This document shows positions 775-57,011 of a DNA stretch of 57,011 nucleotides, piece after piece. Within the stretch, counting starts at the first letter, position 1, and each line of letters begins with the position of its first letter. The notes beneath the pieces were generated by a model. It was not told where the DNA came from. It did not search any database and worked only from the letters and a program-made list of their open reading frames with translations. The stretch lies in sequence record MW602648.1. The stretch is one strand, 5' to 3'. Position numbers and translations under genes: made by a program. This stretch comes from Escherichia phage vB_EcoM_fHy-Eco03.

Positions 775-776
775 AC

Positions 777-1383: not shown

Positions 1384-1492
1384 AAGACAACACCATTAGA
1401 ATGATGATAAAGACAGCAACGGCTTTCGCCATGCCACGAGATTCATTATACACCGGATTTTCAGTGGTGTACTCAACAACATGCTTTTTCAT
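1373..1492 (-). CDS. Small hydrophobic protein (39 aa), absent from the ORF track
   Basis: Hand-translated: MKKHVVEYTTENPVYNESRGMAKAVAVFIIILMVLSYVF. GGAGG Shine-Dalgarno upstream; hydrophobic C-terminal half suggests a membrane segment. Confidence 0.45.
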   Translation of the reverse strand: MKKHVVEYTTENPVYNESRGMAKAVAVFIIILMVLSYVF

Positions 1493-1549
1493 ACAACCTC
1501 CAGTGTGAGAAATATCAATTGATGGCACCCGCAGATGCCATCTCAGATA

Positions 1550-2122: not shown

Positions 2123-2252
2123 GATTTTGTCCTCTTGTTTGTGGTTGACATCATTATAATGTCATGACTTCAGTTGTTTGTACATCTCAAATCACACATT
2201 TTTGTGCAATTTTTATCATGCGGTACGAATTATACCGCATTGTAAAAATTAC

Positions 2253-2453
2253 TCAAGAAATAATTACCTCAGTAACTACTACAGTGTTAGCAGTCACTAA
2301 TGTCAAAACTTTACCAGCTTTTGACCTCACAGCTTTCAACCGTAATTGTGACTGTGTGTAATTATTCCACTCTTCATCACTGAGCACGGTCCTGGTAACT
2401 TCAGGTCGTTCATCTTTGCCAAGCTTCACTACTGTAACTTTGATTAATGGCAT
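2253..2453 (-). CDS. Hypothetical protein (66 aa)
   Basis: ORF packed 4 nt after the upstream gene. Confidence 0.45.
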   Translation of the reverse strand: MPLIKVTVVKLGKDERPEVTRTVLSDEEWNNYTQSQLRLKAVRSKAGKVLTLVTANTVVVTEVIIS

Positions 2454-2456
2454 TGC

Positions 2457-2684
2457 TTAAACCTCAAATTTTGATTCGTCATATTCAGGGTCAGTCACAT
2501 CACGAGTGACACAATTTTGGAGTGCAGTCCAGTATTTTTGGACTTCAGCACCCTCCATGTATAGTGTCCAACCGTGATAGTAACCCTCGAAACTATTCCA
2601 GGTCCGTTCCCAAATCTTTCCGTCTTCGAGCTTATACTCAGTTGGTCTTGAGTCAAACTCACGGATAGTTGTGAATGTTACCAT
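2457..2684 (-). CDS. Hypothetical protein (75 aa)
   Basis: ORF in the coupled leftward array. Confidence 0.45.
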   Translation of the reverse strand: MVTFTTIREFDSRPTEYKLEDGKIWERTWNSFEGYYHGWTLYMEGAEVQKYWTALQNCVTRDVTDPEYDESKFEV

Positions 2685-2753
2685 GCGTTGTTACGCCTCT
2701 GTTGAATAATTTCAATCATGAACTATCACAACTTTGATAGTTCATTGTTGAAA

Positions 2754-2933
2754 CTATTGTAACTTTGTACTAATTTGAATTGTCAATCTAAACTCTTCAA
2801 GTAAGTTATCAATGTTGGATTTATCTTCCACAGCGGTAGAAATTTGATCACTTACAATTTGAGCATTTGACTCAAGAAGTTCAATCAAATGTGTCAATTC
2901 GTCTGCTGTCAATGTCAATTCTTTCATCATCAT
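2754..2933 (-). CDS. Hypothetical acidic protein (59 aa), absent from the ORF track
   Basis: Hand-translated: MMMKELTLTADELTHLIELLESNAQIV... Start overlaps the stop of the upstream ORF (ATGATGA). Confidence 0.4.
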   Translation of the reverse strand: MMMKELTLTADELTHLIELLESNAQIVSDQISTAVEDKSNIDNLLEEFRLTIQISTKLQ

Positions 2934-3100
2934 TCTCCTGAGTTAAATTGTGTGTCAATTTCAATAACTTTGGAACGTACATATTCCAGACAGTCATCAT
3001 AATCGTATGAAGTGTAACTCGGCATTGGAGAATCCAACCCTTCGTTAACATTCCATTCACCTTCATTAACATCAAACCAGATGATTAATTGAGTATGCAT
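2930..3100 (-). CDS. Hypothetical protein (56 aa), absent from the ORF track
   Basis: Hand-translated: MHTQLIIWFDVNEGEWNVNEGLDSPMPSYTSYDYDDCLEYVRSKVIEIDTQFNSGE. AGGAGT Shine-Dalgarno 8 nt upstream of the ATG. Confidence 0.45.
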   Translation of the reverse strand: MHTQLIIWFDVNEGEWNVNEGLDSPMPSYTSYDYDDCLEYVRSKVIEIDTQFNSGE

Positions 3101-3270
3101 TGTTATTACTCCTGTGTTAAGTTGTTTCAGGTGAGACTACTAAACTACTAATAGTCTCTGGATGAAATAACTTCACAGAGAAACAAAACATGTACCAAAT
3201 TGTTAAAGAGCAAAAGACACCATTGACCATCTACCAGATGTGTCTGTTGACTGGTTAAGTACTAACTACA

Positions 3271-3462
3271 CTAAGTAACTACATGCATCCTCCTGAACCG
3301 TTTCTGTGTCAAGTTGTTCAACACATTCAATAAATACATTATGTCAAAGTCCCTGTTGGTTGTACACAATAGAAGTGCAAGTTTGTGCAAGCTTTTAGAA
3401 ATGATAATCATCTGCGGTTGATAGTGATTCTCGTATGCAATTGATATAGTAACGCTCGTCAC
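3271..3462 (-). CDS. Hypothetical protein (GTG start, uncertain)
   Basis: Track ORF; its 5' end overlaps repeat element A, so the start is uncertain. Confidence 0.3.
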   Translation of the reverse strand: MTSVTISIAYENHYQPQMIIISKSLHKLALLLCTTNRDFDIMYLLNVLNNLTQKRFRRMHVVT

Positions 3463-3545
3463 TACTCAGTGTGAAACAGTCGACGGGGGTAAACGTCACA
3501 CACCGGTGCTATATTAGTTCCCCGGCGCAATTTTTATAAAAAATA
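3440..3545. repeat. Imperfect direct repeat element A (about 100 bp)
   Basis: TTGATATAGTAACGCTCGTCACTACTCAGTGTGAAACAGTCGACGGGGGTAAACGTCACACACCGGTGCTATATTAGTTCCCCGGCGCAATTTTTAT aligns with element B 173 bp downstream. Confidence 0.6.
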
Positions 3546-3612
3546 CAATTTCGTTTGTAATCGTAGACATACGGTATAGTTGCGGCCCGGTACCGTCACG
3601 GTGAGTTGTGAT

Positions 3613-3720
3613 TACGATTGTAATGATAACGCACGTTACTATTCACTCTGAAGGGGTGCCGGGGGGTAATTGTCACCTAGGGGTGTTAATTTAAGCCCCG
3701 GCAAATTTTTTATTTTTTTC
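3613..3720. repeat. Imperfect direct repeat element B, spanning the terminal-repeat boundary
   Basis: TTGTAATGATAACGCACGTTACTATTCACTCTGAAGGGGTGCCGGGGGGTAATTGTCACCTAGGGGTGTTAATTTAAGCCCCGGCAAATTTTTTAT; the repeat boundary (3699/3700) falls inside it at CCCC|GGC. Confidence 0.6.
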
Positions 3721-4461: not shown

Positions 4462-4697
4462 TGACTGTAGTTGCACCTGTAAAACGCGAAGTCACTGTAC
4501 ACTACACAGTGCGCATAACTATACCGCGTATTAAAGACCAAGGGCTTCAGCGCGAAGTCATTGATACATGGGCCAAATTCTCCGTCCGGGCAGACCAGAA
4601 GCTTGACGAGGATAAAGCCAGGGCTATCCTGGAAGAGCGTTATATCAATAAACTGGGTGCAACCCACTTCAAATGGCTTAAATTTAAGGTAAAATGA
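4461..4697 (+). CDS. Hypothetical protein (78 aa)
   Basis: ORF coupled to the flanking genes. Confidence 0.4.
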   Translation: MTVVAPVKREVTVHYTVRITIPRIKDQGLQREVIDTWAKFSVRADQKLDEDKARAILEERYINKLGATHFKWLKFKVK

Positions 4698-5368
4698 TGA
4701 TTAATATCATGTTTGCTATGGGCAAAAACGGAGAATTCGGCCGTTCGCTGGAACTCCATAAATCGATTGTTGCCCAGTCTACTGACGAAGAGCTTCGCGC
4801 GCTTCCTAAAAATGGTCTCCCTTGGGTTTGTCGACCTGACATGCTCTTTTTCAGGACTATGACTAATGGTATTGCTTCCGATACAGGCTATAACGCATTT
4901 GAGCAGCTCCGCGGTCAATTTCCCAGCCAGCAGGTAAGCTCGGTAATCAATAACGCAGCCGGAGAGACATCCCAACACAACGTAATATTGGCAGGACGCA
5001 AAACCTGGTTGCAGATGAGCTTACCGCCTTCTCGCTATCGCACCTTTTTGCCCGTCAGCAGACAAGTATTCAAGGATAACGCTTTCTTGACGCTTGCTGA
5101 TATGTGCAAACACTGTGAAGACGCCGGAAATGACGTCTGGATTGTGGGTGGCAAGGAATTGATTATGTCAGCGCTGGTCGAGCACTCGCTGGGTGACCTC
5201 CGTGTTGACAACATGTTCATCAGTACAATAGCCAATGCGGGTCCGAGTGACATCCTACTGGACCGAGAAAAAATAATGGCGTACATAGATAGTGACTTCG
5301 CGTATAATGATGAATATGCTGAAAACAACGAAGTACTCATCCAACGATTTAGAGGCAAACACAAATGA
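4694..5368 (+). CDS. Dihydrofolate reductase-like protein
   Basis: DHFR-like motifs recalled from E. coli FolA and T4 Frd: LPW...FF..T, ILAGRKTW...LP..R, VWIVGGKELI. Carries insertions; not aligned. Confidence 0.5.
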   Translation: MMINIMFAMGKNGEFGRSLELHKSIVAQSTDEELRALPKNGLPWVCRPDMLFFRTMTNGIASDTGYNAFEQLRGQFPSQQVSSVINNAAGETSQHNVILAGRKTWLQMSLPPSRYRTFLPVSRQVFKDNAFLTLADMCKHCEDAGNDVWIVGGKELIMSALVEHSLGDLRVDNMFISTIANAGPSDILLDREKIMAYIDSDFAYNDEYAENNEVLIQRFRGKHK

Positions 5369-5871
5369 ACATCATAGTTGAGGGACCTGACAATGCTGGT
5401 AAATCTACACTTATTAAGTTCCTTGAATCTAATTTGCGCCGCAGTGTTATTCATAATACTGTTGACAAGGATTCGACATCGGTTCTGGGTAAACAAGCTC
5501 AAGAATTATCGCTTGAAGGTAACATTATTTATGACCGCAGCGCTGTTATATCTGAGTATATCTACTGCCTGGTTCTTCAACGTGCGCCTGTAGTCCCTTT
5601 TAATATATCTCATGTAGCAGACTTATGCGATAATGCTATTGTCGTGTTCTGTCTGCCGCCGTTAGATAAGGTTTTGGCCACAACTAAAGACGAAATGCCT
5701 GGTGTGGTCGAAAATCTTGAAAAGCTATATAACCAGTATGACAACTTGATTGATGAGTTAGTTATGATGGGTAAACAGTTCTTTGTATATGACTGGACCA
5801 TTGAAGAAGATGGTGCAGAAGCAGCACTAGAATACATCAATGAACGTAACGATAAGGAGTGGACTAAATGA
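5365..5871 (+). CDS. P-loop deoxynucleoside monophosphate kinase (thymidylate-kinase-like)
   Basis: N-terminal Walker A IVEGPDNAGKST, as in dNMP and thymidylate kinases; size about 168 aa. Confidence 0.5.
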   Translation: MNIIVEGPDNAGKSTLIKFLESNLRRSVIHNTVDKDSTSVLGKQAQELSLEGNIIYDRSAVISEYIYCLVLQRAPVVPFNISHVADLCDNAIVVFCLPPLDKVLATTKDEMPGVVENLEKLYNQYDNLIDELVMMGKQFFVYDWTIEEDGAEAALEYINERNDKEWTK

Positions 5872-33985: not shown

Positions 33986-35953
33986 TTAATGGGCCTCATC
34001 CCAGTTATTTCCTATCTGAGCATCTGTCAGAACTGGTACGCGAAGCGGTAACACTGTTTCCATAACCCGAACAAAGTCTTTAAATCCTGACTTGGCGCTG
34101 TCAGTGTCCGGAATAGAGAAGTTTAATTCATCGTGCACGGTTAAACGAGGTACACCAATCTCGTCAAAGTAACCGTCCTCATAACCTTTCAGCATCGCAG
34201 CTTTCATCTGGTCTGCAGAAGAACCCTGCAGGACTCGGTTGATAGCTTTGTGGGTATCGGCTAGTTTAATATTGTAGCCGTACTCTTCTCGCGCTTTATC
34301 CAGCGGTAAAGGCATCTTACCAAATCCACCACGTTTTGGTACCCATTTATCAAACCAGGTTTTGCGCCCCATAAAGGTTTCAACATAACCCTGCGAGTAG
34401 CATAGCTCCTCATAGTATTTCATTGTCGCACCAATGAACGGGGCACCTTTGTGGTATGCTTCAAGTATTGGTTTAGCTTCGTCTGGAGTCATTGCCAGCT
34501 TACGGGCCAAAGCATTCAGCATCATGCCATAGAGCAAACCAAAGTTAATTGTCTTAGCCGGTTTACGCTCTATAATGTGACCTGAGGCTTCCTTGATAAT
34601 GTCGACCATAACATTGTGGTAATCTGCTTCCGGGTTAGCCGCGAAAATTGCTCGTAACTCATCAGCGCCTGGGCCGATTGCAAAATGCGCCATGAATCGA
34701 TATTCAATTTGGGCGTAGTCGGCGGAAGCCCATTTGTGTCCGTAGTCCGGTACGAAACAAGAACGAACGAGTGGTCCCAATATTTTGTGTCGAGACGGTA
34801 TATTCTGCAGATTAGGGTCAGATGAGCTAAACCGACCACTAACGGTGCCACCGTCATCACCGCGCATTTGATGGAATTGACCGTGAAGGAAGCCATTGTT
34901 ATTTAACCCCAGTATGTAACCACGAATAAACGTGGATTGTATTTTCTCAAAAGACTTAATCTCCGTAACTAACTGAGCGAACGGATGATGTAAGCCTGCC
35001 AGGAAGTCAGCACCAAAGGAAGGGTTACCTTTCTCTGTCTTGCCGTATTCCAGACCTAAATGGTCAAAAGCTAACGCCAGGTCACTGCCTGAGTTAACGT
35101 TTATGCTAAAGCCAAGTTGAGAACGAATCTCCTGATGCATTTTGGCAATTTCTTGGTCCAGCCTGTCATCAGCTTTCTTGGCAGCATCAAGGTCAACTCG
35201 TACACCTGCAAGACGCATCTTAATCATCAGCGGAATCAGCTTTGTCTCCATCATGAAGACGTCCATCAGCTTCCACTTATTAAGTTGCGCCCATTGTTTT
35301 TTCAGTACGTGGATTGGCAAGTCAGCATCTGACTCAGCGTAATAACCCACAAGACGAGGTGGTGTTTTGTAGATGTAGCCACGTGCCTCTCCGTTAGGTT
35401 TACAACCATATGCTTCTGCAATCCATTCGTACATTTCCGACGAGTCTTTACCTTCGCCTACATACTTTTGGCCCAGTCCTTCAAGTGCGACCCTTGCACC
35501 CGGATTGAGAAGAGCTTCGGCAAATTGAACGTCAAACGTGAGCCCTTGTACTTCAACCCCTTCTGCCTTAAGCCAGCCCAAATCGTATGTAATGTTAGCA
35601 CCGACTTTAACTTGCCCCGGTCTGCCGAGCTCACGCTTGAGCCATCCCAATACTTCATAAGCTGGCAGATTATCCTCTGCGCCGAGCTCATGTCTGATGG
35701 GATAGTAAGCCTTGAACCCGTTGTCAGTAGCGATACTAACTCCAACGATGTGACCTTCCCCTCTCGCCCAACCAGGACCAGCTGTGAGGAGGCCAGGGTC
35801 CCATGTCTCACAGTCAAGGCCAATAATCTTTGCCGATGATAAATCCGGGTAATGCGCGCGCGGCCGCCATCCAGTATCTCTGACGTAAGGGATAGGCCTG
35901 TGAATCGGTTTAACATTCTTAGCTCCTTCAAACTCGTCAAAAAGAAAACTCAT
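33986..35953 (-). CDS. DNA polymerase, family A, with 3'-5' exonuclease domain
   Basis: Exo I motif IIGLDCETWD; motif A DYAQIEYRFMAH; motif B RKPAKTINFGLLYGM; motif C VHDE. Confidence 0.9.
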   Translation of the reverse strand: MSFLFDEFEGAKNVKPIHRPIPYVRDTGWRPRAHYPDLSSAKIIGLDCETWDPGLLTAGPGWARGEGHIVGVSIATDNGFKAYYPIRHELGAEDNLPAYEVLGWLKRELGRPGQVKVGANITYDLGWLKAEGVEVQGLTFDVQFAEALLNPGARVALEGLGQKYVGEGKDSSEMYEWIAEAYGCKPNGEARGYIYKTPPRLVGYYAESDADLPIHVLKKQWAQLNKWKLMDVFMMETKLIPLMIKMRLAGVRVDLDAAKKADDRLDQEIAKMHQEIRSQLGFSINVNSGSDLALAFDHLGLEYGKTEKGNPSFGADFLAGLHHPFAQLVTEIKSFEKIQSTFIRGYILGLNNNGFLHGQFHQMRGDDGGTVSGRFSSSDPNLQNIPSRHKILGPLVRSCFVPDYGHKWASADYAQIEYRFMAHFAIGPGADELRAIFAANPEADYHNVMVDIIKEASGHIIERKPAKTINFGLLYGMMLNALARKLAMTPDEAKPILEAYHKGAPFIGATMKYYEELCYSQGYVETFMGRKTWFDKWVPKRGGFGKMPLPLDKAREEYGYNIKLADTHKAINRVLQGSSADQMKAAMLKGYEDGYFDEIGVPRLTVHDELNFSIPDTDSAKSGFKDFVRVMETVLPLRVPVLTDAQIGNNWDEAH

Positions 35954-35954: not shown

Positions 35955-36947
35955 TTAATCCCTCATCAGCGACAAGATTACAGTACGCGCCTCATTCCAC
36001 ATCTTCAGCGTCCTGCTTCCTATACCGATGTTGGTCATGCCTTTAGATAACTTACTCATGTGGCTAATTGATACATTAAACGGTAGTGGAAACTTAGTTG
36101 ATTCAAACTTAATGTCAACTGTCATTTTAGGAATTAGCTTATCTGGTAAAGAAGAGCGGGCGTTACTCTCATCCAGTATCTCCAGAATAGCCTGACCTTC
36201 GTCATACCCTGTTAACTGTTCAAGCGTTTCATTAAGCTCTTTGGTGTATTCAAACTCTTTGTGCTCAATGGTAAAGAAGTTGTTTATATCAGGCCACTTA
36301 TCCGCAAGAGTAGGTGCATCCATACTCAAGCCATCTTCAAACCCGAAGTAGAGTTTGTCACGGAAGTAGGCGATACTTGTGGGCTCAGACTTCAGCTTAA
36401 CCAAAGTCTGCAGCATTGGTTTTGTGATTGCACACTCAAACTCAAAGTCAACGTTGAGGCGCTCACGAATCATATATTTACCGTCTGAGGCAAACGCATA
36501 ACCATTGCGTAAAAGTAAAGTTGTTGCCCATGCTTTTGGCGCCTGGTCTGGCACCCATTTGGCTAACGCAATAAGTGTAGGAAGTAACTGACCATGTGTT
36601 GAGTACCAGTTATTAATTTTGTGGTGGTCAGGTATTGGTTCGTTGAGAAGCTGCATGCGAGTCTTCAGACGGCCTGCAGTTATTGTTAGGTTACCTGCTG
36701 CTGTAATATTAAATACAATCTCTTCAGACTTGGCAGCATTAACGGCTTTACGGAATGATTCAGCATCAACCTGAAAGTCTTCAACACCTTCTACAGGTTT
36801 CCACAGTAAGACGTTTTTGTAGTAAGAATACATAACCCCGTCTATAACCCAAATCTTTGACATCAATCCCGAGTCTTCGTATTTGATAGGACGAACAGAT
36901 TGCACATCTGCCTGCATCTGTTTTGTATTAACTGTGAATTTGCCCAT
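35955..36947 (-). CDS. Hypothetical replication-associated protein (330 aa)
   Basis: ORF immediately upstream of the DNA polymerase. Weak flap-endonuclease-like patterns (WVIDG, IGIGSRT) are not convincing. Confidence 0.4.
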   Translation of the reverse strand: MGKFTVNTKQMQADVQSVRPIKYEDSGLMSKIWVIDGVMYSYYKNVLLWKPVEGVEDFQVDAESFRKAVNAAKSEEIVFNITAAGNLTITAGRLKTRMQLLNEPIPDHHKINNWYSTHGQLLPTLIALAKWVPDQAPKAWATTLLLRNGYAFASDGKYMIRERLNVDFEFECAITKPMLQTLVKLKSEPTSIAYFRDKLYFGFEDGLSMDAPTLADKWPDINNFFTIEHKEFEYTKELNETLEQLTGYDEGQAILEILDESNARSSLPDKLIPKMTVDIKFESTKFPLPFNVSISHMSKLSKGMTNIGIGSRTLKMWNEARTVILSLMRD

Positions 36948-36982
36948 ATAATAAAAGGGACCCGAAGGCCCCTCTCCTGAAG

Positions 36983-37912
36983 TTAAACGGCCATTTGAAC
37001 TTTGATGTTAGCCTGTGGCTTATACTCATCAATCATATCTTGCACATCGGCAACCTGGAAGTCTGTCAACGGAACGTCTTCAATTGACTTGATAGACGGA
37101 CGGTTATCAGATGCAGGGTCATGGCAATCATGGTCTTTGAACAGACGTTTGCGGAACTGTTCAACTGCGTCGAGTGAGTTATTATACAGGTGGTAATCAC
37201 CCAAAGTAAACAACAAATCACCTGGGCGTTTACCTGTCTGAGCGGCCAGCATGATGAGCAGCAACTGGTGCAGCAGAATGTCATGAGGCAGACCCAGCAG
37301 AACATCAGCAGAACGCATATGGAACATCAGGTCCAGCTCGTTCTTTTCGTTTACAAAACACTGGAAGCCATGATAGCAAGGCGGCAGTGCCATATCTGCA
37401 AACTCTTCAGGGTTCCATGCCGTTACATACATACGGCGGTCAGCAGGATTAGTCTTCAGCGTTTCAATCAAACGCTCCAGCTGAGTTGTATACTCAGGAA
37501 CCTGATAACCAACAGGGTCACCGTACGTTTGGCCTTCAACCTTTACGCCGCAGATAAAGGGTTTAACCCATTGGGCGCCATACACTGGTCCCAAATCCCG
37601 ATTGTCAGGAGTTCCCCATTTGGCATTGGCAGCTTGCAGATTAGCTTCCCACCAATTGCATCCATGCCGTTTAAGTTCATCCACGTTAGTAATTCCGTTA
37701 ATGAAGCAGTAAAGCTCAGCAGCCACGGCCTTAATATTAACGGGCTTGAATAGCGGCACCATGAGCTTATTGTGGGTAAACTTAAGTCGAGCGCTAAAAC
37801 CGAAGCTGCGCTTAGTACCAACACCAGTACGATCGTTACTGCTCTCTCCCCCGGCTGTGAGCTCATTGAATAGGGTCTCCATCACATCGTCAACAGTATT
37901 AAAGGTGCGCAT
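36983..37912 (-). CDS. Thymidylate synthase-family enzyme, probably cytosine-specific (dCMP hydroxymethylase or methyltransferase candidate)
   Basis: Hand-aligned to E. coli ThyA from memory: NDRTG, DLGPVYG.QW, catalytic PPC (ALPPCYH), R-S-x-D, GD.HLY and C-terminal ...MAV. The residue matching ThyA Asn177 (PFNIAS) is Asp (PHDILL). ATG at 37912 overlaps the MazG stop. Confidence 0.8.
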   Translation of the reverse strand: MRTFNTVDDVMETLFNELTAGGESSNDRTGVGTKRSFGFSARLKFTHNKLMVPLFKPVNIKAVAAELYCFINGITNVDELKRHGCNWWEANLQAANAKWGTPDNRDLGPVYGAQWVKPFICGVKVEGQTYGDPVGYQVPEYTTQLERLIETLKTNPADRRMYVTAWNPEEFADMALPPCYHGFQCFVNEKNELDLMFHMRSADVLLGLPHDILLHQLLLIMLAAQTGKRPGDLLFTLGDYHLYNNSLDAVEQFRKRLFKDHDCHDPASDNRPSIKSIEDVPLTDFQVADVQDMIDEYKPQANIKVQMAV

Positions 37913-38514
37913 TATACATCCATCTCCATTTGTCCGCCTTTGGTCTGGTGCCACTCGACCACTTTATGAATGTCAGGTGCTGTCCAGCCTTCTGGCTTAA
38001 CGATGTCCTGACATGATTTGTGTTTGCTATCGCTTGCATCAGGTTTAGCACGTTCTTTCGCCATGTTGGCTTTTTGTACTTCGTCCCATGCTTCATCGAA
38101 TGGCCAGTTGTTATTAGCACACCATACGAAGATGTGATTAACCAGGCTTGCAAGGTGCTTGCAGTGAGTTGCTTCATCGTCAGTAAAATAGGCACGAAGC
38201 TCTTTTGCATTGAAGCGGTTCATGAATGAACATGGCTCAATGCCAGGCTGTACAGGATAATCGAAGTCATTGGTAAACCAGTGAACTTCATCGTACAGAT
38301 ACAGTGTACCAACAGCGATATAAACTGTATCAACCAGTGCATCCAGGAATTTACCCTTGTCATTTTCGTCCAAAGCTTCCTGGATTTCGTCTAGCTCTTC
38401 TACCAGACGGTCGTAGCGAAGTTTGAATTCTGGTTTACCACCCATGCTAAGTGGCTTGAGGTCAAACTTATTATGGAAAGCGATAACATCGCTTGCAGCT
38501 TTACTGAAATGCAT
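37912..38514 (-). CDS. MazG-like nucleoside triphosphate pyrophosphohydrolase
   Basis: All-alpha NTP-PPase motif EELDEIQEA...D; coupled to the thymidylate-synthase-family gene. Confidence 0.55.
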   Translation of the reverse strand: MHFSKAASDVIAFHNKFDLKPLSMGGKPEFKLRYDRLVEELDEIQEALDENDKGKFLDALVDTVYIAVGTLYLYDEVHWFTNDFDYPVQPGIEPCSFMNRFNAKELRAYFTDDEATHCKHLASLVNHIFVWCANNNWPFDEAWDEVQKANMAKERAKPDASDSKHKSCQDIVKPEGWTAPDIHKVVEWHQTKGGQMEMDV

Positions 38515-38899
38515 TGCGGAACTCCTCGTTCATCATGTTGATATACTTGCGCTTAAGACTTAAACTTTTAATATTGCTTTCAATCATATTGCGGCGGCGT
38601 TCACGCTCTTCAGTAGTACCCACAAGAGGGTGGACGAAGAGGCCTGAACGGTTGATTGATTTTACGTATGGCATTTTGAATTTAATCTCAGCCACTGCCT
38701 TATCGAACTTGGCCGATACTTCGCGGGTAAAGAATACGGAGTTGAGCTCTTGTTCTACGATACGGGTATGGTGAACAACTTCTTCAAACAGGGAAGATGG
38801 CAGATAGTCAGGGTTTGTGCCGTGCGTAAAGATGAGTTGACCTTCCAGACGCAGTTTCCAGATGCGGTATAATGATTCGGATAATCTTTGGATATTCAT
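38501..38899 (-). CDS. Hypothetical protein (132 aa)
   Basis: ORF overlapping the MazG start. Confidence 0.4.
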   Translation of the reverse strand: MNIQRLSESLYRIWKLRLEGQLIFTHGTNPDYLPSSLFEEVVHHTRIVEQELNSVFFTREVSAKFDKAVAEIKFKMPYVKSINRSGLFVHPLVGTTEERERRRNMIESNIKSLSLKRKYINMMNEEFRNAFQ

Positions 38900-38960
38900 G
38901 CTTCGCTCCTCAAAAAGATAACTTATTATACTACACCACTCTCTATCAGTAAAGCACTTT

Positions 38961-39000
38961 TTTATAAAAAGAAAAAGGACCTGTGGTCAGCAGGTCCTTT
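38961..39000 (-). terminator. Rho-independent terminator (minus strand)
   Basis: 10-bp stem AAAGGACCTG / CAGGTCCTTT (38974..38983 / 38991..39000) followed on the minus strand by UUUUUCUUUUU. Confidence 0.7.
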
Positions 39001-39487
39001 TGGATGTCAACGTAACAAGGATGGTGTTGCATGATGTCCCGAAGCGCGAGCTGAAGACACTTGAGTTGACTCTAACGGGAAAGGAGAGCATTCACACTGT
39101 GAGTTGCCGAAAAACCCGAAAGAGCCAACTAAACTGTTTTCAGTGACCGCCCTTCAAGCAGATTCCAACCGGTGGTCCATGGTAGCGAAGCACGTTTTGC
39201 CGGTCATACAGAACGCCTGAATCCAACAGGCAAGGGCATTTACCTAATCTCGGTCAGCGAGCAGACTCGAACTGCATTAAGTGTGACGCTTCAGCGCCTG
39301 AGTTATTGTGGATAACCTGCCATCCCGCGAGGATGTCAAAAAGGAAATGCCAAAGCGCCACACTTAATGCTACATTCAACTGAGCACCCTCACAAAACCA
39401 ACGCACCAGGCATGATGAAAAGGAGATGTAAAGTAAGGATACTCATTGAATGCACCTCCGAAGAGGTGCGTTCGTGATCAGCGCCGA
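39001..39487 (-). ncRNA. Candidate structured noncoding RNA or cis-element (ORF-free region)
   Basis: About 490 bp with no ORF of 60 aa or more in any frame and only trivial short ORFs; bounded by a UUCG-tetraloop hairpin (39452..39469) and the terminator at 38961..39000; lies inside a densely coded leftward operon. Confidence 0.3.
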
Positions 39488-42004: not shown

Positions 42005-42877
42005 TTATAAAGAGAAGGCTACTGCTGGTCCATCATCCTTTCGTGGGTATACATCAGCCATTGTGTAATCCCCACAAGCTGCCATCTGAGTTGCGATGGT
42101 TTCGAGATTGTGTTCATGCTTGGTGCAGTACCACACCTTGCCGCTTACAGGTTTACTGTAGGCACAGGTACGGCAATTCCTGTCTGGTGCCGCTCCCTTG
42201 TTGCAGATGTGTGTAAACTCACACATACGGCATTCCCACCACAGCGGTGATTCACTGATGCGCGGCATATCCAAACCAGACTCTGCTTCAATAACACTCT
42301 TAGCCCGGTCAAGTATAATGTCTGCAGACAGATTATCACGGTGTACAATCTCTATGTACAGCTCATCCGTGTTCTTATTGATTGCCATGTACACACACTT
42401 ATTCAGATTGAGTAAGTGCATATATACTTGCATCTGGTCATAGTGCACGGGCTTACACTCTTTTACCTTATGCTTAGCAAACTCCTTAAACGATTTGTCT
42501 CCATGAGTTTTAAACTCCAACAGGAACCATTCATCGTCTATCTTCGCCACACCATCGCATGACCCTGAGAAGATACCGTTAAACGCTGACACTCGCCATT
42601 GTTTATTGGTCTTAGGGTTTACAGGATAAAGCTCCTGCGCAATTGGTTTAAGCCATTCGAGGAACCGTACTTCTTCCCGTGAACCTCGGTCAAACAATCG
42701 AAGCTGCTTGGCATTAAACTTTTCTTTGTACGACCAGTGCAGCACATGCCACAAATAACGATAGCACTTATTACCAATTTGTGACGCACCCAGGTGACCA
42801 CGTCGCTCCTCCTTCTCATGGGCTTCAACAATCTTAACATCAATTCGCTTCTTCAGCGTTTCGGCCGTAATACTCAT
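42005..42877 (-). CDS. Cas4/RecB-like PD-(D/E)xK exonuclease with Cys cluster
   Basis: One N-terminal Cys (KCYRYLWH) plus C-terminal CRMCEFTHIC...CRTC, the Cas4-type arrangement. Start placed at the internal ATG (42877) with AGGGG Shine-Dalgarno; the track ORF extends to 42925. Confidence 0.45.
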   Translation of the reverse strand: MSITAETLKKRIDVKIVEAHEKEERRGHLGASQIGNKCYRYLWHVLHWSYKEKFNAKQLRLFDRGSREEVRFLEWLKPIAQELYPVNPKTNKQWRVSAFNGIFSGSCDGVAKIDDEWFLLEFKTHGDKSFKEFAKHKVKECKPVHYDQMQVYMHLLNLNKCVYMAINKNTDELYIEIVHRDNLSADIILDRAKSVIEAESGLDMPRISESPLWWECRMCEFTHICNKGAAPDRNCRTCAYSKPVSGKVWYCTKHEHNLETIATQMAACGDYTMADVYPRKDDGPAVAFSL

Positions 42878-43388
42878 TATAGCCCCTGTTAGCAAACTGA
42901 CCATGCATTTGAATACGCATTTCATCCAGCCAGTTTATTAGTTTAGTCCTGTTGTCTTCTGTCGCCAACATTGTCTTGGTCTTGCGTTTGCCGTCCTTAG
43001 TAATGCTGGCAACATAATATGGTTTACCTTTTAGTGTTACTCTTGATAACCCTTTTACACCAGATGTGTTATTAAGATATATATTTGTGTTGCAACGGTT
43101 ATCGCTACGTGTTGCTGCTCTGACATATTTATTGTCCTCTCGCGTTAGACTCGGATGGTCAACTTCCGGTGGTTCATACCCAAACTGCATGAAGTAGATT
43201 ACACGATGTACAAGGCACTGTCTCCCTTTAATGCGCACTGTTTTGTAACCGTCTTTACGTAAAGAACCGGCTTCCGTGCCGGCTTTAACTTTATTATTGG
43301 CCCTGTTAATCTTGTTCATTAACCGGCCATCTTCAACATAGAACAGCTCTGACAACTCAGCTTGTGTAGCCGGAATCGGCACAAACAT
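42840..43388 (-). CDS. HNH homing endonuclease
   Basis: GYKTVRIKGRQCLVHRVIY...EVDH...NRCNT pattern typical of phage HNH homing endonucleases; overlaps the neighbouring genes. Confidence 0.55.
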   Translation of the reverse strand: MFVPIPATQAELSELFYVEDGRLMNKINRANNKVKAGTEAGSLRKDGYKTVRIKGRQCLVHRVIYFMQFGYEPPEVDHPSLTREDNKYVRAATRSDNRCNTNIYLNNTSGVKGLSRVTLKGKPYYVASITKDGKRKTKTMLATEDNRTKLINWLDEMRIQMHGQFANRGYNEYYGRNAEEAN

Positions 43389-43806
43389 ATTCTACTCCTG
43401 AATCAGTTAAAAAAGCCTTTGCCTCGAGCATAGATGCATGCCATTTTGAGGCAGAATAAGCGTCTAGAGAGCTAGTCACTAGCCTTATAATAGGTATATT
43501 CGCCTTAAGCATTTTAGAGCACTCTAGGCATGGCGGATATGTGACATAAACGGTCACACCTTCTGTCAGTTGTGCCTTTAAATTAGCCATACAATTAACT
43601 TCTGCATGGATTGTATACACATTCTTCAGTTCCGCTGGGATAACCGACAAGCCATCCAGCTGACGAGGGAATCCATTGTAGCCTGTTGACAGTATGCGAT
43701 TGTCTTGTGATACTATAACACATCCAACTTTACGCTTATCATCTTTGGACCAGCTACCTATAAGGTGAGCCAGCTCCATAAATCGGCTATCCCAAAGGTT
43801 CTGCAT
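43357..43806 (-). CDS. dCMP deaminase
   Basis: Zinc-binding motifs HAE (IHAEVNCMA) and PCxxC (PPCLECSKM); AGGAG Shine-Dalgarno before the ATG at 43806. Confidence 0.8.
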   Translation of the reverse strand: MQNLWDSRFMELAHLIGSWSKDDKRKVGCVIVSQDNRILSTGYNGFPRQLDGLSVIPAELKNVYTIHAEVNCMANLKAQLTEGVTVYVTYPPCLECSKMLKANIPIIRLVTSSLDAYSASKWHASMLEAKAFLTDSGVEYVCADSGYTS

Positions 43807-43824
43807 GTTAAAGCTCCTGCGCAC

Positions 43825-46147: not shown

Positions 46148-47212
46148 TTACAGCAGTGATTTAAGCTGGTCGATAGATTTCAACAGCATTGCGATTTCAG
46201 GGTCACGCTCTGCCATCATGCGAAGCATGTCACCACGCATCATTTCCTGCACACGTTTGTCGAGTGCAGCTTCAGCAGCTTTCAGGTTCTCTTCGGCCTG
46301 CTGACGCGCACGATACATACCCAGGTCAACTACAGACACCAGCCATTTCAGGTCATAGTGAGTTGGGTTGTGGTCAAGCACATTAACTACTTCAACAACC
46401 TTAGTACCACACAGCTCTGGGTACATTTTATTTTCAACACGCACAACCGCTTCATCGCCGATGTTAACCTGACCACGATACTTGTAAGTATACAGCTTGC
46501 CGCCATCTTCAAACTGTACCTGCACATAACGGATTGGCTCTTCCTGCACGATAGCTGCAGCAGTCATAACACGACGCTCCAGTGCATTGAAGTCCAGAAC
46601 CAGCGCTTTAGGTTGTTCTTTCTTACCGTAAGCAGCTTGCATCTTCGCTGCAAGATACTGCTCGGAGTAAGTTACTTTGATGTTGCGCTTAAACGCCTGG
46701 CAACCATAAACCATCCAGCTACCAGTTTCATCAACGCAGTAGATTTGGTTAGAAGGTGCAGAAGCGCTTGCGCCATCTTTGGTTTTGGAAACGCGATACA
46801 GTTTGCCATATTCCAGGTTTACCTTAGGCTGTACAGCCTGCGCCCATTCAAGGTTTTCCTTAACGAACGGCTGGAAACGTTCACGGCTAAAGTTATGCTT
46901 CAGACCATGGTCGTCGATAACCCAGATGTTGTCGTGCTGACCGCCGAAAGAACCGAGGTTAGCATATACTTTACCCTGAGTCAGCAGTGAAGTGCTACCT
47001 TCATCAACACAGATAACGAAGTTGATTGCGTCATGAGCTTTACCGTTTTTGTCGAATACTTGTGCCATGGTCTTATTTCCTTGTTTAGTGACAGATACAA
47101 TACTTGTTTTGTGGGTACCAGGTGCTAAGCGCTCACCATCTTTTGCGTCAACCTTAATTTTAACTCGCAGGCCGCGACCGAGCATTTGAATCAATTCCAT
47201 TAAGAACCTCAT
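46148..47212 (-). CDS. Hypothetical protein (354 aa)
   Basis: ORF with coiled-coil-like C-terminus. Confidence 0.5.
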   Translation of the reverse strand: MRFLMELIQMLGRGLRVKIKVDAKDGERLAPGTHKTSIVSVTKQGNKTMAQVFDKNGKAHDAINFVICVDEGSTSLLTQGKVYANLGSFGGQHDNIWVIDDHGLKHNFSRERFQPFVKENLEWAQAVQPKVNLEYGKLYRVSKTKDGASASAPSNQIYCVDETGSWMVYGCQAFKRNIKVTYSEQYLAAKMQAAYGKKEQPKALVLDFNALERRVMTAAAIVQEEPIRYVQVQFEDGGKLYTYKYRGQVNIGDEAVVRVENKMYPELCGTKVVEVVNVLDHNPTHYDLKWLVSVVDLGMYRARQQAEENLKAAEAALDKRVQEMMRGDMLRMMAERDPEIAMLLKSIDQLKSLL

Positions 47213-53203: not shown

Positions 53204-53357
53204 TATATAAAAGATAGAGAGTATTTAAAACAAGTACTTAGGCATCCTTATTCATGTAATCCGGTTATATGTATTATATAATTATCAGATTGGATAAGAA
53301 AAAGTTATTGCCGGCGCAAAAAGAAAAAAAGCCGGATTGCTTTTGAAATTATAGACA

Positions 53358-53386
53358 TTTACACAAGTCTTAAACTATGTTACAAT
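53358..53386 (+). promoter_or_regulatory. Copy of the terminal-repeat promoter (TTTACA-N17-TGtTACAAT)
   Basis: Duplicate of 46..74. Confidence 0.5.
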
Positions 53387-53425
53387 AGTTATTATTTACA
53401 ATGTTAAGCACAATAGGAATTCATC

Positions 53426-53623
53426 ATGAGCTATACTGACCAACAAATTGACACAGCAGCGGTTTTATTGGCACAAGAGGTAGATTTATTGCATTCTTTG
53501 ATGAATGCTAGTCATGATAGAGCTGAAACTATCAAGAATCAGATACGGGAAATTTGGTCTCAGCAGGTCAGCAACGGTGTATCTTTGGACTTTTTGGTGT
53601 GCCGCCTGAGAGGTCAACTGTAA
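53426..53623 (+). CDS. Hypothetical protein (duplicate of 114..311)
   Basis: Identical copy in the right terminal repeat. Confidence 0.5.
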   Translation: MSYTDQQIDTAAVLLAQEVDLLHSLMNASHDRAETIKNQIREIWSQQVSNGVSLDFLVCRLRGQL

Positions 53624-54048
53624 TGGTAAACATAAGAAGCAAGGGCCAGAACTTTGAGCGTAAAATGTCGAAAATGTTCAATGAATCGTTCGGGTTATCT
53701 ACTGAGAGAAATCTCCAGCAATCTATAAACGGTGGAGATGATTTGATGGGAGTCCCGTTCTTCAGCGTTGAGCTCAAGAAGCACAACACCAAAGCTATCG
53801 GGACTTGGTGGAAGCAATGTGCGGAATCAGCACGGCGTCAAAGCAAGATGCCAGTGCTAATCTATGAGATGCCACGGCAAAAGCCCACTGTCGTGATGAG
53901 AATTGAGGACGTCAGTCAAGCTTTGGCTGAGGCACCACTGTTGCCAGCGGCTAGTAACAGGCTCTTTGTGGGCTTGGTGGAATTAACATGGGAACAATTT
54001 TGCCGGGTCTACAACTTTTACGTTGCGCCCGGCGTCGAGGTTGCTTAG
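53623..54048 (+). CDS. Putative PD-(D/E)xK-family nuclease (duplicate of 311..736)
   Basis: Identical copy in the right terminal repeat. Confidence 0.4.
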   Translation: MVNIRSKGQNFERKMSKMFNESFGLSTERNLQQSINGGDDLMGVPFFSVELKKHNTKAIGTWWKQCAESARRQSKMPVLIYEMPRQKPTVVMRIEDVSQALAEAPLLPAASNRLFVGLVELTWEQFCRVYNFYVAPGVEVA

Positions 54049-54088
54049 GTTGATGCTTGCATCAACACCAGTCAACTGTAGTTGACAC

Positions 54089-54274
54089 TTAGTCTTGTTT
54101 CAACTCATCGCAGATAACGCGTTGATTTTGAGCTGGTACAAACCCGAGTTCGAGCAAAGTGTAAGGACTATCGGCGACGCATTGTTCAATGGTAGTCCAT
54201 TCAGTTTTGGATTCAATAATTTTGTAACTACAATCATGAGTAGCCACACATGTTGCCAGGATTAAGCCAATCAC
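54089..54274 (-). CDS. Hypothetical protein (duplicate of 777..962)
   Basis: Identical copy in the right terminal repeat. Confidence 0.45.
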   Translation of the reverse strand: MIGLILATCVATHDCSYKIIESKTEWTTIEQCVADSPYTLLELGFVPAQNQRVICDELKQD

Positions 54275-54450
54275 AAGTAATCTCCTTCAACCAGAAACTC
54301 AAACAATTGGTTGTAAACGTTGCAACCCTTAGCGAAAGAGCTTTCAGCAGGTTTACCATCGCGGACGATCATCATATATTCACCGCCATGAATATCCACC
54401 CAGTATTGCATGCCACCCTTGACAGGGTTACGTTGTAAGAATTTAAACAT
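54271..54450 (-). CDS. Hypothetical protein (duplicate of 959..1138)
   Basis: Identical copy in the right terminal repeat. Confidence 0.5.
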   Translation of the reverse strand: MFKFLQRNPVKGGMQYWVDIHGGEYMMIVRDGKPAESSFAKGCNVYNQLFEFLVEGDYL

Positions 54451-54695
54451 TATTTGCTCCTTACTCCAAGTTTATTCAATAACCACACTGTCATGTCAAC
54501 CCAGGTTAACGGTACAGTTTTCGGGGGTTGATAAGACCAGCACTTTCCAGCTCTTTCCGCAATTTCTTCGCGCCTTGCCGCTTGGCGTAATACTGCATCG
54601 TCAGAAGTGCCGGCAGAAAAAATATCGGCAATACCAGATAAATCGCCTCGATGAACACGTCCAGCAAGTTCATGCAGTTGCTCCTCAGAAAACAT
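54450..54695 (-). CDS. Hypothetical protein (duplicate of 1138..1383)
   Basis: Identical copy in the right terminal repeat. Confidence 0.5.
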   Translation of the reverse strand: MFSEEQLHELAGRVHRGDLSGIADIFSAGTSDDAVLRQAARREEIAERAGKCWSYQPPKTVPLTWVDMTVWLLNKLGVRSK

Positions 54696-54804
54696 AAGAC
54701 AACACCATTAGAATGATGATAAAGACAGCAACGGCTTTCGCCATGCCACGAGATTCATTATACACCGGATTTTCAGTGGTGTACTCAACAACATGCTTTT
54801 TCAT
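54685..54804 (-). CDS. Small hydrophobic protein (duplicate of 1373..1492)
   Basis: Identical copy in the right terminal repeat. Confidence 0.45.
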   Translation of the reverse strand: MKKHVVEYTTENPVYNESRGMAKAVAVFIIILMVLSYVF

Positions 54805-54861
54805 ACAACCTCCAGTGTGAGAAATATCAATTGATGGCACCCGCAGATGCCATCTCAGATA

Positions 54862-55434
54862 TTACTCGCCTTCAGTCTCAGATTTTTCTTCAGTCTGAGG
54901 TGCTGCGGCTTCGTAGACCGTCTTACCATCAGTGATTTTACCGGATTTAACATCGTTACGGTAATAACTCATGTAAGACTGTACAACACGTTTTGATTTA
55001 ACATCATCTTCAGCCATTTCACAGGCTTTCATGGCATCCGCAAGAGCGAGTTTTGAATCGTCTTTGTCTGCCAAGTTGTAATCTTTGAAGACCGCGTAAC
55101 AAGTATCTTTGGTACTCGGTCCTGAAGATTTACGAGTACAACCAGTTGAACCGGAACGACTAGCTTTCTTCACTTCAACATGCTCAACCTCAAGACTTTC
55201 AAGTGCCTTATACAAAGCAGGCACCAGAACATCCTTGCTGTCTTTGTGGGTGACAGATGCTTCATCATCAAGACTTTTAATCATCTTGACCAGTTGAGCA
55301 TTTTGGAACTCTTTGAGAGCGCCTTTCTCAACAACGATGCAACTCATCATGCCTTCCATTGACAGACCATCTTTGATGCCTTCAACAGAAAAAGCGGAAG
55401 TTAAGTAAACATACTGAGTGATAGAATTTTCCAT
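54862..55434 (-). CDS. Hypothetical early protein (duplicate of 1550..2122)
   Basis: Identical copy in the right terminal repeat. Confidence 0.6.
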   Translation of the reverse strand: MENSITQYVYLTSAFSVEGIKDGLSMEGMMSCIVVEKGALKEFQNAQLVKMIKSLDDEASVTHKDSKDVLVPALYKALESLEVEHVEVKKASRSGSTGCTRKSSGPSTKDTCYAVFKDYNLADKDDSKLALADAMKACEMAEDDVKSKRVVQSYMSYYRNDVKSGKITDGKTVYEAAAPQTEEKSETEGE

Positions 55435-55564
55435 GATTTTGTCCTCTTGTTTGTGGTTGACATCATTATAATGTCATGACTTCAGTTGTTTGTACATCTC
55501 AAATCACACATTTTTGTGCAATTTTTATCATGCGGTACGAATTATACCGCATTGTAAAAATTAC

Positions 55565-55765
55565 TCAAGAAATAATTACCTCAGTAACTACTACAGTGTT
55601 AGCAGTCACTAATGTCAAAACTTTACCAGCTTTTGACCTCACAGCTTTCAACCGTAATTGTGACTGTGTGTAATTATTCCACTCTTCATCACTGAGCACG
55701 GTCCTGGTAACTTCAGGTCGTTCATCTTTGCCAAGCTTCACTACTGTAACTTTGATTAATGGCAT
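55565..55765 (-). CDS. Hypothetical protein (duplicate of 2253..2453)
   Basis: Identical copy in the right terminal repeat. Confidence 0.45.
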   Translation of the reverse strand: MPLIKVTVVKLGKDERPEVTRTVLSDEEWNNYTQSQLRLKAVRSKAGKVLTLVTANTVVVTEVIIS

Positions 55766-55768
55766 TGC

Positions 55769-55996
55769 TTAAACCTCAAATTTTGATTCGTCATATTCAG
55801 GGTCAGTCACATCACGAGTGACACAATTTTGGAGTGCAGTCCAGTATTTTTGGACTTCAGCACCCTCCATGTATAGTGTCCAACCGTGATAGTAACCCTC
55901 GAAACTATTCCAGGTCCGTTCCCAAATCTTTCCGTCTTCGAGCTTATACTCAGTTGGTCTTGAGTCAAACTCACGGATAGTTGTGAATGTTACCAT
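55769..55996 (-). CDS. Hypothetical protein (duplicate of 2457..2684)
   Basis: Identical copy in the right terminal repeat. Confidence 0.45.
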   Translation of the reverse strand: MVTFTTIREFDSRPTEYKLEDGKIWERTWNSFEGYYHGWTLYMEGAEVQKYWTALQNCVTRDVTDPEYDESKFEV

Positions 55997-56065
55997 GCGT
56001 TGTTACGCCTCTGTTGAATAATTTCAATCATGAACTATCACAACTTTGATAGTTCATTGTTGAAA

Positions 56066-56245
56066 CTATTGTAACTTTGTACTAATTTGAATTGTCAATC
56101 TAAACTCTTCAAGTAAGTTATCAATGTTGGATTTATCTTCCACAGCGGTAGAAATTTGATCACTTACAATTTGAGCATTTGACTCAAGAAGTTCAATCAA
56201 ATGTGTCAATTCGTCTGCTGTCAATGTCAATTCTTTCATCATCAT
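56066..56245 (-). CDS. Hypothetical protein (duplicate of 2754..2933)
   Basis: Identical copy in the right terminal repeat. Confidence 0.4.
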   Translation of the reverse strand: MMMKELTLTADELTHLIELLESNAQIVSDQISTAVEDKSNIDNLLEEFRLTIQISTKLQ

Positions 56246-56412
56246 TCTCCTGAGTTAAATTGTGTGTCAATTTCAATAACTTTGGAACGTACATATTCCA
56301 GACAGTCATCATAATCGTATGAAGTGTAACTCGGCATTGGAGAATCCAACCCTTCGTTAACATTCCATTCACCTTCATTAACATCAAACCAGATGATTAA
56401 TTGAGTATGCAT
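56242..56412 (-). CDS. Hypothetical protein (duplicate of 2930..3100)
   Basis: Identical copy in the right terminal repeat. Confidence 0.45.
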   Translation of the reverse strand: MHTQLIIWFDVNEGEWNVNEGLDSPMPSYTSYDYDDCLEYVRSKVIEIDTQFNSGE

Positions 56413-56582
56413 TGTTATTACTCCTGTGTTAAGTTGTTTCAGGTGAGACTACTAAACTACTAATAGTCTCTGGATGAAATAACTTCACAGAGAAACAAAA
56501 CATGTACCAAATTGTTAAAGAGCAAAAGACACCATTGACCATCTACCAGATGTGTCTGTTGACTGGTTAAGTACTAACTACA

Positions 56583-56774
56583 CTAAGTAACTACATGCAT
56601 CCTCCTGAACCGTTTCTGTGTCAAGTTGTTCAACACATTCAATAAATACATTATGTCAAAGTCCCTGTTGGTTGTACACAATAGAAGTGCAAGTTTGTGC
56701 AAGCTTTTAGAAATGATAATCATCTGCGGTTGATAGTGATTCTCGTATGCAATTGATATAGTAACGCTCGTCAC
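56583..56774 (-). CDS. Hypothetical protein (duplicate of 3271..3462)
   Basis: Identical copy in the right terminal repeat. Confidence 0.3.
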   Translation of the reverse strand: MTSVTISIAYENHYQPQMIIISKSLHKLALLLCTTNRDFDIMYLLNVLNNLTQKRFRRMHVVT

Positions 56775-57011
56775 TACTCAGTGTGAAACAGTCGACGGGG
56801 GTAAACGTCACACACCGGTGCTATATTAGTTCCCCGGCGCAATTTTTATAAAAAATACAATTTCGTTTGTAATCGTAGACATACGGTATAGTTGCGGCCC
56901 GGTACCGTCACGGTGAGTTGTGATTACGATTGTAATGATAACGCACGTTACTATTCACTCTGAAGGGGTGCCGGGGGGTAATTGTCACCTAGGGGTGTTA
57001 ATTTAAGCCCC

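Follow-up and report, generated by a model that had tools for sequence, protein, structure and literature searches.

The Escherichia phage vB_EcoM_fHy-Eco03 (MW602648.1; the whole stretch analyzed, 57,011 nucleotides, is referred to below as the window) encodes a thymidylate synthase (TS) homolog with Asp in the place of Asn177 of canonical ThyA, next to a small nucleotide pyrophosphohydrolase, which raises the question of what substrate this enzyme uses and what product ends up in the phage DNA. Our answer, which we consider probable although far from assured, is that the phage replaces cytosine with 5-methylcytosine (5mC) at the nucleotide level, before replication. The assignment of deoxycytidine monophosphate (dCMP) as the substrate of the TS homolog is strong; the methyl product, the specificity of the hydrolase and the completeness of the replacement we infer. 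A sequence-only reading of the locus had proposed a cytosine-modification pathway consisting of a TS retargeted to dCMP, the hydrolase, a deaminase, a kinase and a dihydrofolate reductase (DHFR), and this proposal is supported by the active-site residues, the gene linkage, the folds and the co-variation described here. The two central genes are:

36983..37912, minus strand: TS-family enzyme, predicted dCMP C5-methyltransferase (5-methyl-dCMP synthase), 309 aa, ATG start, assigned from PF00303, PDB alignments and residue tables
37912..38514, minus strand: all-alpha NTP pyrophosphohydrolase of the PRA-PH/MazG/dimeric-dUTPase superfamily, 200 aa (PF01503 PRA-PH, 2.5e-9)

The match of the first protein to the Pfam profile PF00303 (Thymidylat_synt; E=7.7e-60, residues 14-309 aligned with profile positions 6-266 of 266) is far too strong to be due to chance. 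The protein also matches phrog_160 (3.7e-75) in a PHROG scan and scores above the NCBIfam TIGR03284 cutoff (160.5 vs 108.35), and the solved structures nearest to it, at roughly 35-38% identity, are those of true thymidylate synthases. All TS motifs quoted in the sequence-only reading are present (SNDRTG, DLGPVYGAQW, MALPPC, MRSAD, GDYHLY), whereas the length of 310 aa given there should be 309 aa. The stop codon of the upstream hydrolase gene overlaps the TS start codon (GAT GTA TAATG), an overlap that is plain from the sequence itself.

In both a MAFFT alignment with E. coli ThyA and HMMER alignments to solved TS structures, in which the query segment glphdill pairs with gvpfnias, Asp211 of the phage protein (codon GAC, 37282..37280) lies opposite the conserved Asn177, just as had been proposed; the Asn of the canonical ThyA specific for deoxyuridine monophosphate (dUMP; EC 2.1.1.45) is thus replaced. 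Position 147, which the earlier reading had singled out for inspection, holds Tyr instead of His, and the complete set of departures from ThyA is H147Y, Q165M, F176H and N177D. By contrast, Asn-type sequences outside the phage clade have Gln165 in nearly all cases and His147 in all (120 homologs). The rest of the active site is conserved, namely R21, E58, W80, Y94, R126, R127, L143, the catalytic C146, R166, S167, D169, H207, Y209 and the C-terminal ...MAV. The E. coli ThyA numbering used here agrees with the 12 active-site residues listed in PMC13326640, and the T4 gp42 sequence used for comparison is identical to that of PDB 1B49.

These residues can be interpreted with published rules. Asp at position 177 confers preference for dCMP (PMC13326640), and N177D mutants of the E. 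coli and Lactobacillus casei enzymes, as cited in PMC13326640 and PMC8670742, switched their preference to dCMP. Acidic replacement of Leu143 correlates with hydroxymethyl products, as in the T4-like enzymes and MilA (Asp/Glu), and Asn replacing Asp169 marks 5-hydroxy-dCMP synthases (PMC13326640). Positions 177 and 147 of TS are the two most strongly associated with cytosine-modified metavirome contigs, where PRA-PH and dCMP-deaminase domains accompany TS (PMC8670742). Furthermore, five of the seven Asp-type TS homologs predicted to make 5-methyl-dCMP (5mdCMP) yielded 5-methyldeoxycytidine (5mdC) in vivo (bioRxiv 10.1101/2024.12.05.627091). The phage enzyme combines Asp177 with a hydrophobic residue 143 (in MALPPC), Asp169 (in RSAD) and an intact ...MAV end, the last three being features that correlate with reductive methyl transfer; the acidic residue at position 143 and the missing TS C-terminus of the T4 gp42 type, as well as the Asn169 of the RB69 gp48-type 5-hydroxy-dCMP synthases, are not seen. 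Under the rules of PMC13326640, these residues, together with the presence of a DHFR and the lack of a glycosyltransferase, lead us to predict 5-methyl-dCMP as the product. The earlier proposal of either 5-hydroxymethylcytosine (5hmC) or 5mC is supported with respect to cytosine modification and is narrowed to the methyl derivative by Leu143, Asp169, the C-terminus and the DHFR.

The signature is not peculiar to one phage. The 33 closest protein clusters (52-96% identical, from phage-sized contigs of 45-61 kb) form a single clade (bootstrap support 98%). A large gap divides it from the remaining TS, which reach at most 40% identity to the phage enzyme. Tyr147, Met165, His176 and Asp177 are shared by 29 of these clusters, the Y147/H176 combination being unusual among the 120 nearest homologs. 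The catalytic Cys146 and R21, E58, Y94, R126, R166, S167, D169, H207 and Y209 are found in all 33, and so is R127 with the exception of the four Asn-type clusters discussed below, which have Lys; the ...MAV terminus is invariant. The hydrolase-TS pair is present in dozens of cultured Rosemountvirus and Loughboroughvirus genomes, where the TS gene, if named, is called "thymidylate synthase", and a scan of IMG/VR gave 7 related loci. Wherever the flanks of an Asp-type locus extend far enough, they encode a deaminase (43-53% identity) as well as an intact hydrolase (43-99%). Asp177 also occurs in TS homologs outside the clade (P0048, P0099 and P0034-P0036), including Parcubacteria-labelled sequences (Y147/D177/F209) and a small group with H147/M165/N176/D177; therefore, cytosine-directed TS seems to have arisen several times, possibly in cellular genomes or prophages.

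One member of this group has been studied at the level of its DNA. The TS signature and the gene order of the Loughboroughvirus phage S144 are identical to those of the window phage, and it has been shown that S144 DNA is cut only by SspI and PacI, whose sites consist of A and T, and resists seven enzymes with G/C-containing sites (XhoI, EheI, Bsp120I, Cfr42I, NotI, MauBI, SspDI), whatever the host (PMC7432712). The authors concluded that the cytosines are modified and did not identify the responsible gene (PMC7432712). If complete substitution by 5mC is the case in this group, the unexplained resistance of S144 would be accounted for.

Other genes of the window with predicted roles in such a pathway are:

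43357..43824, minus strand: dCMP-deaminase-family zinc deaminase, HAE...PCxxC (PF00383, 2.3e-20; phrog_174, 5.4e-38)
4694..5368, plus strand: DHFR, 224 aa (PF00186, 30.7 bits vs a cutoff of 25; phrog_316, 7.3e-23)
5365..5871, plus strand: thymidylate-kinase-like P-loop kinase (phrog_761 'thymidylate kinase', 2.8e-25), its start overlapping the DHFR stop
33986..35953, minus strand: family-A DNA polymerase, from open reading frames (ORFs) and the annotation of the related phage KE25, with a DNA_pol_A Pfam match in syntenic loci
35955..36947, minus strand: clamp-like processivity factor directly downstream of the TS gene, from ORFs and the KE25 annotation

The deaminase, DHFR and kinase had all been recognized in the sequence-only reading, and the profile matches bear them out. 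The deaminase ORF, previously given as 43357..43806, extends to a GTG start (155 aa, or 149 aa from the ATG at 43806) and contains the zinc motifs IHAEVNC...PPCLEC. The DHFR keeps the GLPW, GRKTW and IVGG motifs and, compared with E. coli FolA, carries an insertion ahead of LPW and another ahead of GRKTW; the Pfam and NCBIfam matches of the kinase are below cutoff. The MazG-like assignment of the upstream hydrolase likewise stands, given its PF01503 match, the EExxE...DxxD helices and the helical-bundle fold typical of MazG, HisE and dimeric dUTPases. The metal-binding acidic residues E39, E40, E43, D58 and D62 are invariant in this small family, and so is a C-terminal ANMxK...D..KPxGWxxP motif (A149, N150, M151, K153, D170, K173, P174, G176, W177, P180). 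The suggestion that this protein is a dCTPase analog fared less evenly, being favored by the linkage to the Asp-type TS and by the loss of its catalytic motifs in the Asn revertant described below, whereas profile comparison with T4 gp56 gave no significant similarity (hhalign probability 0.4%, E=0.14) and the best structural matches are dimeric dUTPases. We predict a dCTPase, possibly with dUTPase activity as well. No glycosyltransferase, DNA methyltransferase or TGT/DpdA-like domain was found in about 35 ORFs scanned against Pfam, PHROG and NCBIfam, nor is such a gene annotated in the 95%-identical phage KE25, in agreement with the earlier statement on glycosyltransferases.

On the 5mC reading, these genes would act as follows. 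The pyrophosphohydrolase (37912..38514) would cleave dCTP to dCMP and pyrophosphate, barring unmodified cytosine from DNA and supplying the substrate; this role is suggested by the linkage to the Asp-type TS and by the loss of hydrolase motifs in the Asn revertant described below. The translationally coupled TS homolog (36983..37912) would bind dCMP rather than dUMP, with Asp211 hydrogen-bonded to the N3/4-NH2 face of cytosine, aided by Q165M and H147Y, and would transfer and reduce the methylene group of 5,10-methylenetetrahydrofolate, giving 5-methyl-dCMP and dihydrofolate (DHF). The phage DHFR is predicted to recycle the DHF released by this reductive methylation to tetrahydrofolate, and the thymidylate-kinase-like protein to phosphorylate 5-methyl-dCMP and/or dTMP; with a host nucleoside diphosphate kinase, 5-methyl-dCTP would result, which the family-A polymerase would have to use. 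The deaminase would turn part of the 5-methyl-dC nucleotide pool into thymidine nucleotide, acting on 5-methyl-dCMP or its triphosphate, and/or might convert dCMP to dUMP; by this diversion, a single TS-type enzyme would supply the methyl group of both pyrimidines. Deaminases encoded next to the seven TS homologs mentioned above, chosen for deamination of 5-hydroxymethyldeoxycytidine in vivo, acted on C5-modified cytosine, and one of them, characterized in detail, prefers 5mC over C, suggesting that dTMP is made from 5mdCMP (bioRxiv 10.1101/2024.12.05.627091). The preference of deaminases for 5mC or C is, however, a polyphyletic trait that cannot be read from sequence.

A natural control for these assignments is provided by the four clade clusters that carry Asn177 (AAC vs GAC). 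These four group together in all bootstraps (100%), and in 98% the query subclade is their sister, whereas a group of the Asp sequences that leaves them out is recovered in 0%. Given this nested position, we conclude that Asp reverted to Asn. Only one of the four (P0015) is encoded on a long contig from an uncultured phage (ENA ERZ28586583 scaffold_108, 61.4 kb, about 97% of which was read; loci L003 and L014-L017), which is syntenic with the window. No deaminase gene and no zinc-binding motif were found in this portion of the contig. In the ORF upstream of the Asn-type TS, similarity to the hydrolase is reduced to a trace of 30 residues, and no EExxE/DxxD helices, C-terminal motif or PRA-PH match was found in it; the DHFR homolog is without the LPW and GRKTW motifs. 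The kinase and the Y147/H176 signature are kept. No cultured phage with an Asn-type TS was found, the best match being 60% identical. This co-variation agrees with a dependence of the hydrolase and the deaminase on a cytosine-directed enzyme, and it is the reverse of what simple boosting of dTTP synthesis would predict. It further suggests that the modified state can be lost by a single G-to-A change (GAC to AAC), with subsequent loss or degradation of the accessory genes, so that the revertant lineage is a useful natural test of the membership of genes in the pathway.

How does the 5mC reading compare with other interpretations of the same genes? The enzyme might be an ordinary or dual-specificity TS that, with the deaminase, kinase and DHFR, boosts dTTP, the hydrolase being a dUTPase and the gene causing no cytosine modification. 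It is annotated as TS in all GenBank relatives, it passes the TIGR03284 cutoff, its catalytic and folate-side residues are all canonical, its nearest solved relatives are true TS and the hydrolase fold is closest to dUTPases; a dTTP pathway was indeed proposed by the authors of the S144 study (PMC7432712). We nevertheless regard this explanation as rather improbable, because the N177D mutants, as cited in the two papers above, prefer dCMP, because Asp is conserved with co-varying Y147 and M165 across a deep clade, because no deaminase gene was found on the contig of the Asn-reverted lineage, whose hydrolase and DHFR homologs are without their motifs, and because the DNA of S144 is modified while another gene that might be responsible has not come to light.

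A dCMP hydroxymethylase like T4 gp42, giving DNA with 5hmC that is bare or decorated by an unrecognized enzyme, is an unlikely alternative. In its favor, Asp177 and Met165 are common to gp42 and the phage protein, and the S144 resistance pattern is compatible with any C5 adduct. Against it, the hydroxymethylase reaction generates no DHF, whereas the phage carries a DHFR. The rule that separates methyl from hydroxymethyl products is only correlative (PMC13326640), but Leu143 is kept where the T4-like enzymes and MilA have Asp or Glu, the full TS C-terminus that gp42 is without is invariant in the clade, neither a glycosyltransferase nor another transferase was found in the scanned ORFs and the KE25 annotation, and the model of the 354-aa early protein described below shows SH3/Tudor-like barrels instead of an enzyme fold. 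Other C5 chemistry on dCMP, be it hydroxylation as in RB69 and DLP3 or an undescribed reaction involving Y147/H176, would give a derivative that is neither 5mC nor 5hmC. TS homologs have lately been shown to catalyze unexpected reactions, such as flavin-dependent 5-hydroxylation (PMC13326640), and the Y147/H176 pair is indeed uncommon. However, Asp169 is kept and the D169N diagnostic of 5-hydroxy-dCMP synthases is absent, no sugar-nucleotide or transferase gene was found in the ORFs scanned, and Y147/H176 persists in the Asn revertant and is therefore not specific to cytosine chemistry, which makes this the least probable of the explanations. That an independent Tyr147/Met165/His176/Asp177 lineage performs non-methylation chemistry, such that Rosemountvirus and Loughboroughvirus virions contain an undescribed cytosine derivative made before replication, with no recognizable transferase, appears very doubtful as well.

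Several observations weigh against replacement by 5mC, even though we prefer it. The restriction data come from a relative, S144, the TS of which is 61% identical; moreover, all sites resistant in S144 contain both G and C, so that a guanine modification might also account for the resistance. The revertant argument is limited in weight because there was one such event, and one long contig shows it in full. The choice between methyl and hydroxymethyl relies on a few correlated residues, and in the published assay no 5mdC was formed by two of the seven enzymes for which the same product had been predicted (bioRxiv 10.1101/2024.12.05.627091). The substitutions H147Y and F176H both persist in the Asn revertant. 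Finally, the lack of detectable gp56 profile similarity and the dUTPase-like structure leave the substrate of the hydrolase a prediction.

Should 5mC replacement be correct, the modified DNA would help the phage to evade restriction by its hosts. Such DNA should be insensitive to many type II systems and sensitive to nucleases that depend on modification, McrBC and MspJI-like enzymes among them, which would shape the host range of phages that are repeatedly isolated as biocontrol or therapy candidates against Salmonella and E. coli, as the Rosemountvirus and Loughboroughvirus groups are. Nanopore base-calling and bisulfite-type assays would be affected, and a systematic misannotation as "thymidylate synthase" would be corrected.

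The TS gene and the hydrolase gene belong to a unit that starts with a further ORF, preceded by putative transcription signals:

38501..38899, minus strand: 132-aa ORF, first gene of the TS unit (phrog_36727, 1.4e-27, a family of unknown function)
38925..38953, minus strand: putative promoter of the sigma-70 type (TTTACT-17-TATAAT) directly before the 132-aa ORF, from a consensus scan
39001..38973, minus strand: terminator-like hairpin preceding the promoter-like site

The 132-aa ORF has no Pfam match, and 14 nt at its 3' end are shared with the beginning of the pyrophosphohydrolase gene. It is also kept in the Asn-revertant phage (35% identity, tblastn) and is therefore not specifically tied to the Asp trait. 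In S144, a promoter is annotated at the syntenic place. At the other end of the unit, the sequence between the TS stop codon and the clamp ATG (36947) contains a Shine-Dalgarno-like GGAGAGG, which shares bases with a hairpin made of a 6-bp stem (GGGGCC/GGTCCC) and a UUCG loop; TTTT comes next (36953..36978). The hairpin may act as a weak terminator or move the Shine-Dalgarno sequence nearer to the start codon.

The genome as a whole is that of a Rosemountvirus-like myovirus, complete at about 53.3 kb, with some 3.7 kb repeated at the end of the window. Positions 2696..3211 are identical to 56008..56523 (offset 53312), the ORF 242..736 recurs at 53554..54048, and the overlapping zones are 1..3700 and 53313..57011, which points to either a terminal repeat or an assembly with circular permutation. 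Around the TS locus, nucleotide identity to Salmonella phage vB_SEnST11_KE25 is 95%, the Loughboroughvirus phages ZCSE2 and S144 being more distant relatives. An HNH endonuclease ORF (42840..43388, minus strand; phrog_99, 6.6e-37), absent from KE25, lies between a PD-(D/E)XK exonuclease and the deaminase. The 776 bp at 42877..43653 have no nucleotide similarity to KE25, the flanks being 94% identical; the deaminase shares only 53% protein identity with its KE25 counterpart, its start-proximal 170 nt or so still matching. A homing endonuclease seems to have inserted here, replacing a large part of the adjacent deaminase gene. The 354-aa protein encoded at 46148..47212 (minus strand), the largest unannotated early protein, which is conserved and without a family match, was considered as a hidden modification enzyme and rejected: its AlphaFold model (mean predicted local distance difference test score, pLDDT, 67) shows SH3/Tudor-like beta barrels in tandem and, at the C-terminus, a long coiled coil, not an enzyme fold, and gave no significant PDB match.

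With respect to known systems, the sequence-only reading had compared these genes with the T4 set. The enzymatic logic is indeed the same, comprising a pyrophosphatase that removes dCTP, a dCMP-directed enzyme of the TS family, a deaminase, a deoxynucleoside monophosphate kinase and a DHFR (gp56, gp42, cd, gp1 and frd), and gp42 likewise has Asp and Met at the equivalents of positions 177 and 165. However, gp42 has Asp at the Leu143 position (SDFMC) and no TS C-terminus, the hydrolase is without a significant gp56 profile match, no glucosyltransferase was found in the ORFs scanned, and T4 encodes a separate td gene where the window phage has one TS-family gene only. The 5-hydroxy-dCMP synthases RB69 gp48 and DLP3 gp80 are also TS homologs with Asp177 that act on dCMP before replication (PMC13326640) but combine L143E and D169N with arabinosyltransferases, whereas L143 and D169 are unchanged in the window enzyme and no transferase gene was found in the ORFs scanned. 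The engineered E. coli ThyA N177D and L. casei TS N229D, as cited in the literature, resemble the window enzyme in having a canonical scaffold with the one Asn-to-Asp change, which in these mutants shifts specificity to dCMP and leaves reductive methylation intact; the phage enzyme differs in being natural, in carrying H147Y, Q165M and F176H as well, and in belonging to a dedicated phage pathway.

The closest analog is not T4 but the 5mC system of Xp12 and PaMx74, which consists of a TS-homolog dCMP methyltransferase, a PRA-PH hydrolase, a deaminase preferring 5mC and a DHFR; PaMx74 served here as the reference in place of Xp12. PaMx74 is reported to carry 5mC in place of C (bioRxiv 10.1101/2024.12.05.627091). 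In both PaMx74 (gp52) and the window phage, Asp occupies the ThyA-177 position of TS, the gene directly upstream of the TS gene and overlapping it encodes a hydrolase of the PRA-PH family, and a homologous deaminase (37% identity to PaMx74 cd) and a DHFR are encoded; the hydrolases themselves are homologous, with the invariant metal-binding residues and the ANMxK...KPxGWxxP motif in common. The organization and the history of the two systems differ. The PRA-PH hydrolase, TS(Asp), cd and frd genes of PaMx74 form one contiguous overlapping block, whereas in the window they are dispersed, with the deaminase 5.5 kb and the DHFR and kinase about 32 kb away from the TS gene; furthermore, PaMx74 is a Pamexvirus and the window phage an enterobacterial myovirus. 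The two TS proteins are only 28% identical, less than the window enzyme and canonical bacterial or eukaryotic TS (roughly 35-38%), and belong to separate branches, with the window enzyme nearer to canonical TS, so that the Asn-to-Asp switch was probably independent rather than inherited from a common Asp-type ancestor. The predicted outcome is the same: replacement of C by 5mC, with dT derived from 5mdC. This idea echoes the "new thymidylate biosynthesis" reportedly described for Xp12. Both the N177D rule and the association of TS, PRA-PH and deaminase with cytosine-modified phage DNA have been published (PMC8670742; bioRxiv 10.1101/2024.12.05.627091), and no link of Rosemountvirus or Loughboroughvirus to 5mC or to a TS variant was found in the literature searched. 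Within that literature, the cytosine-modifying system of the window would be new for this group of phages while belonging to a known kind, that of Xp12, PaMx74 and the MetaGPA contigs.

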